A stretch of 64,000 nucleotides of DNA from Balanoglossus misakiensis. Its lineage: Eukaryota; Animalia; Hemichordata. The translations under genes were made by a program, and so were the position numbers. A model generated the notes under the pieces. That model worked only from the letters and a program-made list of their open reading frames with translations. It searched no databases and had not been told where the DNA came from. Shown one piece after another: positions 29,819-30,460 of this stretch. The stretch covers positions 6,313,705 through 6,377,704 of the forward strand of contig CM082587.2 in the NCBI GenBank assembly GCA_040954595.2. The letters run 5' to 3'. How positions within the stretch are numbered: position 1 is the stretch's first letter; each line of letters starts with the position of its first letter.

Positions 29819-30460
29819 CTACTTCTCTATCCGCCCCGACTTGACTTCCAAGTAAATTGGGAGGGTGTTGTACTGACACCTATCGCCAGTAAACTCCGGT
29901 GGACATCTGAAAATAATGACAGAATTTGATTGGGTGAAATCCCAACTTCTAGTATCGTACTTTTAATCGTGTTGTAGACACGGTTCTTACAGATTGACCC
30001 GAGTGACTTGTTTCGCCATCTTCTACGTGCCCTGGCAATGTTAATTATCGCATAAAAATGCCAATTAAATGAAATAAAATAAAACCCTGGGTCCATGTTG
30101 ATTATTACTTAATGAAACAATGTGATTTTTTTCTGGTAAAGTCTTGACCAGCTTGACCAAAAAATCAGTAACCCATAAAAACTACAGCGAATGAGGAAAC
30201 CATTACAGTATTGAATCATAGCTATGGTATTCTCCACCAAATTGAGTAATGTACTCTTTTGTTCACAGAATCTCACAACAAGAGATTGCGTTGAAATCAC
30301 ACAAAGCTTAACGAGGCAATGAATAGTGTCAGGACTCACTCGCAGGTTTCGTGGGGGTCGTTTTCTATTCCTTGCAAATAGCACACGCCACCGTGTAAGC
30401 AATATGATGATGCTGTCTCTTTTGGGCAGAGCTTCAAGTAACAGTGTCTGCCTCCATATC
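29819..30460 (-). CDS. Last two exons of the giant gene: EGF/neuregulin-type ErbB-ligand EGF module [29 protein letters not shown](E)[28 protein letters not shown]
   Basis: Manual translation of 30460-30340 plus 29906-29819; phase-2 intron between Cys4 and Cys5. Confidence 0.85.

Follow-up and report, generated by a model that had tools for sequence, protein, structure and literature searches.

The gene predicted on the minus strand of the window, the whole 64,000-nucleotide stretch of Balanoglossus misakiensis DNA that was analysed, combines a propeptide and Gla domain at the N-terminus with a long array of EGF modules, the last of which (module 78) is, with very high probability, of ErbB-ligand-class origin. 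The favoured interpretation, to which a probability of roughly 0.45 is given, is that the gene encodes a secreted protein whose Gla domain docks on anionic membranes and whose stalk carries an EGFR ligand at its tip. A sequence-only reading of the terminal module had taken it for an ErbB ligand. This reading is right about the class of the module, but it did not take in the Gla domain at the N-terminus, with which a different mechanism becomes likely. The feature is of more interest for this context than for module 78 alone.

Structure of the predicted gene

The predicted gene model consists of 42 exons, which run from 57338 to 29819 on the minus strand, and its stop-free frame encodes 3071 amino acids with 78 EGF modules. 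The exon chain was built by a script from genomic signals only; it was completed by hand at both ends, and a few internal boundaries were corrected. All 41 introns of the model are of the GT-AG type with compatible phases. The features are listed in Table 1.

Table 1. Features of the predicted gene, from its 5' to its 3' end (positions in the window)
Feature	Position	Strand	Basis
Candidate signal-peptide exon; ends in phase 0 whereas the Gla exon needs phase 1	63141..63182	-	script scan
Second candidate signal-peptide exon	60031-59990	-	script scan
Propeptide and Gla domain exon	57160..57338	-	Pfam PF00594, factor IX match
25-nt exon ending the Gla domain, phase 0 to 1	56676..56700	-	sequence and model
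EGF module 1, whole module on one phase 1-1 exon	54994..55113	-	Pfam and model
Exons of the Notch-type EGF array, modules 2-75, including the large exons 35900-33852 and 33600-31900	31900..51579	-	model
Last part of module 75, then Cys1-Cys4 of module 76	31557..31668	-	model; best single-stretch PDB match is neuregulin-1
Intron of module 76 in phase 2, between Cys4 and Cys5, 477 nt	31080..31556	-	model
Cys5-Cys6 of module 76, Spitz-like tail, 16-residue linker and most of module 77	30925..31079	-	Spitz match; Notch match for module 77
Last part of module 77, then Cys1-Cys4 of terminal module 78	30340..30460	-	model, PDB match
Intron of module 78 in phase 2, between Cys4 and Cys5, 433 nt, GT-AG	29907..30339	-	model
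Terminal exon: Cys5-Cys6 of module 78, 19-residue polar tail and stop	29819..29906	-	model, PDB match
AATAAA, likely polyadenylation signal, about 40 nt past the stop	29775..29780	-	sequence

Script scans of the 5' region gave no convincing exon that bridges a candidate signal-peptide exon to the Gla exon. The link between the Gla domain and the array spans introns of 1.6 and 3.4 kb and is likewise read from genomic signals. No further phase 1-1 exon is predicted in these two long 5' introns, and the only prediction there that looks like a signal exon, inside the 3.4-kb intron, is a simple repeat. The CpG test for an internal promoter in the 3.4-kb intron is uninformative, because CpG is not depleted across the region. 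Each exon of the tail begins with residues needed to finish the Notch-type module before it, and this forces the tail onto the EGF array. It is highly probable that the Gla exon and module 78 are on the same transcript.

Terminal EGF module

Module 78 is encoded by the two exons in which the sequence-only reading had located it (30460-30340 and 29906-29819, minus strand), and the first of these exons has an AG acceptor in phase 1 and a GT donor in phase 2. The phase-2 intron that had been noticed between Cys4 and Cys5 is also predicted from the genomic sequence, as a 433-nt GT-AG intron that splits a codon, and the splice-site scores of the module (acceptor 2.5, donor 2.0) are inside the range of the other sites of the gene. 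An intron at this position had been called a hallmark of ErbB-ligand genes, and it is published as such (PMC1618406, PMC11686035).

The cysteine spacing had been misread at the first loop, which contains 8 residues between Cys1 and Cys2 instead of the 7 of C-x7-C, and the full spacing is 8-5-12-1-8. This correction leaves the case unweakened, because Drosophila Spitz (PDB 3C9A, 3LTF) has the same spacing. Module 78 also shares with Spitz Tyr-Cys-Leu at Cys2 and G-x-R-C-x-Y at Cys6, and the two can be aligned without gaps with 16 of 45 positions identical (hand count). The first loop is 8 residues long here and 7 in neuregulin-1 and EGF. The claim that module 78 lacks the Ca-binding consensus holds; it lacks the beta-hydroxylation consensus as well, whereas these are present in 54 and 58 of the 78 modules respectively. 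Equivalents of EGF Tyr13, Leu15, Arg41 and Leu47, which had been cited in favour of a ligand, are indeed present, but G-x-R-C, found in 10 of the 78 modules, and C-L-H, found in 3, are not discriminating alone. The His of module 78 would correspond to His16 of EGF. An aromatic residue before Cys2 is found in only one module out of 78, which is module 78 itself.

Neuregulin-1 ranks first in the PDB for both halves of module 78, with weak E-values of 0.29 and 0.044, and all PDB E-values of ligands for the tail modules are weak (0.02-0.3). From Cys5, 10 of 11 residues are identical to those of neuregulin-1, which differs from the predicted protein in its Ig domain and transmembrane segment. Pfam gives no family for either half of the module. 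A null set was made of 3676 Notch/Crumbs/EYS-type modules, which were recognised in 120 listed proteins by a pattern that skips modules with extra cysteines. The long-loop spacing occurs in 31 of these 3676 modules, a number that is not a count of independent modules because many Notch, Crumbs and EYS orthologues are included, and in none of the 31 is Cys2 also preceded by an aromatic residue or Cys6 by G-x-R. When module 78 is ranked against 3785 stored modules, all of its top 25 matches are Spitz-like modules of locusts, and its best score is 134, as compared to 93 for the null set. None of the top 25 is Spitz-like when ten Notch-type modules of the window are ranked in the same way. The PDB matches, the spacing and the intron thus point to a ligand-class EGF domain, as the earlier description of a bona fide ErbB ligand implies, but this description goes too far in that the transmembrane segment expected of such a ligand is not there.

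Module 76 and the position of introns

Module 76, which is located two repeats upstream of module 78 (31668-31019, minus strand), is a second ligand-type module with the spacing 7-5-10-1-8 and its own phase-2 intron between Cys4 and Cys5, and without the equivalents of Tyr13 and Arg41. It had escaped notice in the sequence-only reading. Modules 76 (7-5-10) and 78 (8-5-12) are the only ones with long first and third loops; the remaining 76 of the 78 modules are of the Notch type. Introns are present inside 38 EGF modules, between Cys5 and Cys6 (23), Cys2 and Cys3 (8), Cys3 and Cys4 (5), or Cys4 and Cys5 (2), and both of the Cys4-Cys5 introns fall in the two ligand-spaced modules. The chance of this placement is 1 in 3003 over the 78 modules, or 1 in 703 over the 38 intron-bearing modules. 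Phase 2 is the usual phase of this intron in ligand genes.

Neuregulin-1 and Spitz are the best single-stretch PDB matches of module 76, with the two-repeat PVFP-5 ahead of them in summed score. In the exon that follows the intron of module 76, the first 20 residues have Spitz as their best single-stretch match, and the likeness to Spitz extends to the tail of this module. The ranking against the 3785 stored modules places module 76 in an intermediate position, with 7 of its top 25 matches being Spitz-like, and module 77, which serves as a control, has Notch first in the PDB ranking. Module 76 is likely to be a second, internal ligand-derived copy that has lost its binding residues.

The proposal that a ligand module was shuffled onto the array is not borne out as a clean exon swap, because both ligand-type modules start inside an exon, where the junction with the array is found. 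The exons that start modules 76 and 78 open at the same position of the array (Cys5+3, phase 1) and end at Cys4+1. This arrangement may have arisen either by one capture and an old duplication of a pair consisting of a Notch-type and a ligand module, or by two captures, and both fit.

Receptor contacts and C-terminal end

Tyr13, Leu15, Arg41 and Leu47 of EGF contact subdomain III of EGFR (PMC8879084, PMC1618406), and Met21, Ile23 and Leu26 contact subdomain I (PMC8879084). In module 78, the subdomain-III set is complete and accompanied by an equivalent of Gln43, with Leu at Cys2+1 and Cys6+5, so that the module resembles human EGF in its subdomain-III contact residues and seems to differ from it at the subdomain-I positions. 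Tyr, Gln and Glu are found at the offsets of Met21, Ile23 and Leu26, but the register of these positions is uncertain, because the loop between Cys3 and Cys4 is longer than that of EGF by 2 residues. Two residues before Cys4, module 78 has Glu where Spitz and neuregulin-1 have Tyr. The predicted C-terminal binding face of module 78 therefore seems to be intact, whereas the state of the other one is uncertain.

The stop is located 19 residues past Cys6, and the peak 19-residue hydropathy near the C-terminus is 0.42. A scan of donors and exons downstream of Cys6 found neither a transmembrane segment nor a compatible in-frame hydrophobic exon, and a search for an alternative Cys5-Cys6 exon found none. 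Two criteria for ligands have been given (PMC1618406), namely that a splice site separates Cys4 from Cys5 and that the module lies close to a transmembrane segment. The former is predicted for modules 78 and 76, and the latter is lacking. Modules of mucin, meprin and IMPG2 have both properties, without ligand activity shown in the available text of that paper, and secreted ligands exist, such as Vein (PMC1618406) and planarian egf-6 and egf-7 (PMC4914847).

Gla domain and Notch-type array

The Gla domain scores 43.1 bits against Pfam PF00594 (cut-off 27), and the exon for the propeptide and Gla domain matches factor IX with an E-value of 1.3e-10. The 25-nt exon that ends the domain contains a segment that we take to resemble the aromatic stack. 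The Gla region contains 14 Glu in 49 residues. Its N-terminal (omega) loop contains 3 residues more than that of factor IX in the alignment, and its lipid specificity may therefore differ. The residues F-16, A-10 and L-6 of the propeptide consensus (positions from PMC5578492) are all present, and the R-x-K-R cleavage site of the propeptide is the only R-x-K/R-R site in the whole 3071-residue model. It is inferred from these properties that the Gla domain would be gamma-carboxylated and would bind lipid.

Modules 2-75 are mostly spaced 4-5-8-1-8 and carry the Ca-binding consensus. The best matches of the array in the database, as judged from the best 120 of 4070 matches, are Notch, Crumbs, EYS and EGF arrays with identities of 31-48%. 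Notch is defined by LNR repeats, a transmembrane segment and ankyrin repeats after the EGF array. The predicted protein differs from Notch receptors in that its frame ends shortly after module 78 without any of these.

The array shows three different expansion histories in one gene. The exons 35900-33852 (2049 nt) and 33600-31900 (1701 nt) on the minus strand contain about 33 EGF modules without introns; upstream of these exons, a unit of three exons (about 168/165/123 nt), which encodes four modules, is repeated; and the 5' part of the array is built from a two-exon unit of 68/163 nt. Four near-identical tandem copies of 103 nt, each with an acceptor and an exon, are located at 50650-51061, and only the last copy in the direction of the gene has the matching donor (50719-50652). 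These copies are either an assembly artefact or a recent expansion. Module 74 (32100-32030 region) has an extra cysteine between Cys2 and Cys3, which is a possible chain-linking site, and one RGD motif is present at residue 589 of the model.

Homologue searches and locust arrays

No orthologue was found, in searches that are weak for this protein owing to length limits or short queries. A word-indexed search with the terminal exon and the Gla exon gave no match among proteins of up to 2000 residues. A search with a 566-residue exon gave neither PF00594 nor an identity above 48% in the best 120 of 4070 matches; it was limited to proteins of 992-2830 residues, a range that excludes any full-length orthologue, at about 3,100 residues. 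In a metagenome scan, the Gla exon had 401 pattern matches, none of which was confirmed.

The terminal exon matched 7 of 1.84 billion representative sequences, two of which contain EGF modules and are from locusts (P0001 and P0003). The other five (P0002 and P0004-P0007) were dropped as unrelated repeats. Four Schistocerca proteins, XP_049772871 (P0001), XP_046988226 (P0008), XP_049855444 (P0009) and XP_049855445 (P0003), are tandem arrays of Spitz-spaced EGF modules, and are annotated as Notch-like or fibropellin-like. The ligand spacing is found in 32 of the 34 modules recognised in P0001, 18 of which also have the aromatic residue before Cys2 and G-x-R, and one chosen locust module matches Spitz with an E-value of 1e-9. 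XP_049772871 and XP_049855445 resemble the predicted protein in having modules with the same spacing as module 78, but differ from it in that nearly all of their modules are of the ligand type, without a Gla domain or a Notch-type stalk, and they are not orthologues. The locust arrays, which are possibly poly-ligand precursors, are consistent with the class to which module 78 is assigned and lend support to it.

Proposed mode of action and its alternatives

According to the favoured interpretation, one secreted protein of about 3,100 residues would be produced from a single transcript, and its gamma-carboxylated Gla domain would dock on an anionic membrane that exposes phosphatidylserine. The 76 Notch-type repeats would form an extended stalk, stiffened by calcium, with a length of roughly 200 nm (one EGF module is 2.5-3 nm long), and module 78 at the tip of this stalk would activate the EGF receptor of the animal. 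The place at which the protein sticks, such as a wounded or dying cell, would control the signal, instead of release from a membrane anchor by shedding. Activation of the receptor by module 78, taken as a separate claim, is somewhat more probable than its opposite. A placement of the ligand after other EGF modules is also seen in pro-EGF.

Gas6 and protein S provide the closest parallel to this mode of action, because they bind phosphatidylserine through a Gla domain and activate a receptor kinase by the far end (PMC6321118). The predicted protein resembles them in its propeptide, Gla domain, EGF modules and predicted receptor-kinase-binding unit at the far end, but differs from them in having no laminin-G pair, 78 EGF modules instead of a few, and EGFR instead of a TAM kinase as the predicted receptor. 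It may work like Gas6, yet it is not a member of this family. In its fullest form, the proposal would be that of a phosphatidylserine-sensing, vitamin K-dependent EGFR ligand, the Gla domain of which sticks to wounded or dying cells, which reaches out about 200 nm to switch on EGFR of neighbouring cells without shedding, and which would be both an equivalent of Gas6 for EGFR and the first sign of ErbB ligands at the ends of invertebrate Notch-like arrays that earlier surveys filtered out. This fuller form is doubtful.

It is unlikely, but deserves the first place among the alternatives, that the end module is ligand-derived without being a signalling ligand, and that the protein is a calcium-dependent fibre of the matrix, or an adhesive or mineral-binding one. 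The end module, like those of mucin and meprin, would then be a relic, a competitor or a ligand that is weak and tethered to the matrix. The large majority of Notch-type modules and the atypical Cys3-Cys4 loop of module 78 fit such a fibre, and decay of a ligand module has already happened once in this gene, because module 76 retains the intron and the spacing without the Tyr13 and Arg41 equivalents. Repeats of tenascin-C have been reported as matrix ligands of EGFR (PMC2150768). However, module 78 keeps the whole set of subdomain-III contacts, unlike module 76 and the modules of the null set, and, as the last module of the chain, it has a free position that a receptor could reach.

The second alternative, that module 78 is a true ligand for which the Gla tether is not the mode of action, is rather improbable. 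The ligand would be cut off and diffuse, or it would be produced from a transcript without the Gla domain or with a downstream membrane anchor, as a more ordinary precursor like pro-EGF. The 16-residue linker before module 77 is unique and could be a cut site, but the only R-x-K/R-R site of the model is that of the propeptide. A weak donor (score 0.5) is present just before the stop, but no in-frame hydrophobic exon fits any donor past Cys6, and the stop has AATAAA behind it. Long 5' introns and a first exon that is only a candidate speak for this alternative, but the sole signal-like exon in the 3.4-kb intron is a simple repeat. Precursors with several EGF-like domains are known (PMC4914847). 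Finally, it is very improbable that module 78 is a terminal Notch-type repeat that has drifted into likeness to a ligand by chance, because, although G-x-R-C and C-L-H recur in the array, the long-loop spacing recurs in the null set and the PDB E-values are not significant, both long-loop modules, but none of the other 76, have an intron where ligand genes have it, the joint set of residues is absent from all 3676 null modules, and the ranking is Spitz-like in 25 of 25 matches.

Ligands of EGFR are taken to be either membrane precursors activated by shedding or small secreted proteins. If the favoured interpretation is true, a Gla-anchored stalk would add a third mode of EGFR control, that by binding to a surface, and would connect vitamin K with signalling by this receptor. 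It would also offer a testable job for gamma-carboxylation in animals without the vertebrate clotting cascade, the role of which in such animals has been noted as unexplained (PMC5578492).

Relation to published ligands and surveys

Gla-domain proteins of Ciona, invertebrate vitamin K-dependent proteins attributed to Kulman et al. 2006, are said to be modular, and one of them reportedly has a run of EGF repeats. The combination of a Gla domain with an EGF array may therefore already have been described, and the ligand-type tip is the part for which no record was found. Searches of the mostly open-access literature for Gla domains with invertebrate EGF arrays, for Gla domains with EGFR ligands and for invertebrate ligand precursors did not return this architecture, and the available parts of PMC3141003, PMC9643190 and PMC2527998 describe no such protein.

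Spitz, which is released by Rhomboid (PMC11686035) and the gene of which lacks the Cys4-Cys5 intron (PMC1618406), has a single EGF module, whereas the predicted protein has 78 modules, a Gla domain and no membrane anchor. SISS-1, a damage-linked ligand of C. elegans, was identified through this intron (PMC11686035). A survey that lists 75 candidate ligands kept single-EGF candidates only and excluded multi-EGF proteins by design, as described in its available text (PMC4914847), and it could therefore not have listed a protein of this kind. Architectures of EGF-type and of NRG-type in the same survey consist of one EGF motif, alone or with an Ig domain, and 78 modules with a Gla domain fall outside them. 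Ligand-type modules inside arrays, as seen here and in locusts, have probably been overlooked because the survey kept single-EGF proteins and databases label such arrays Notch-like.

Neighbouring features of the window

Pairs of inverted repeats of 37-78 nt are located upstream of the Gla exon at 57682-57973 and 59387-59750, and are possibly small non-autonomous transposons. The next gene downstream (28776-27103, minus strand) has a start resembling a signal peptide and a Cys-containing, coiled-coil-like first exon, which has no Pfam match and presumably resembles the N-termini of angiopoietin-like proteins, followed by a frame of 378 codons that matches EPTP at the borderline (21.2 bits, cut-off 21). 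Judged by their motifs, the frames at about 10070-23660 on the plus strand presumably resemble an adenylate kinase of several domains, with ankyrin-like parts and parts rich in Glu and Ala, and those at 5900-8310 on the minus strand a GPI transamidase subunit (PIG-K/GPI8).
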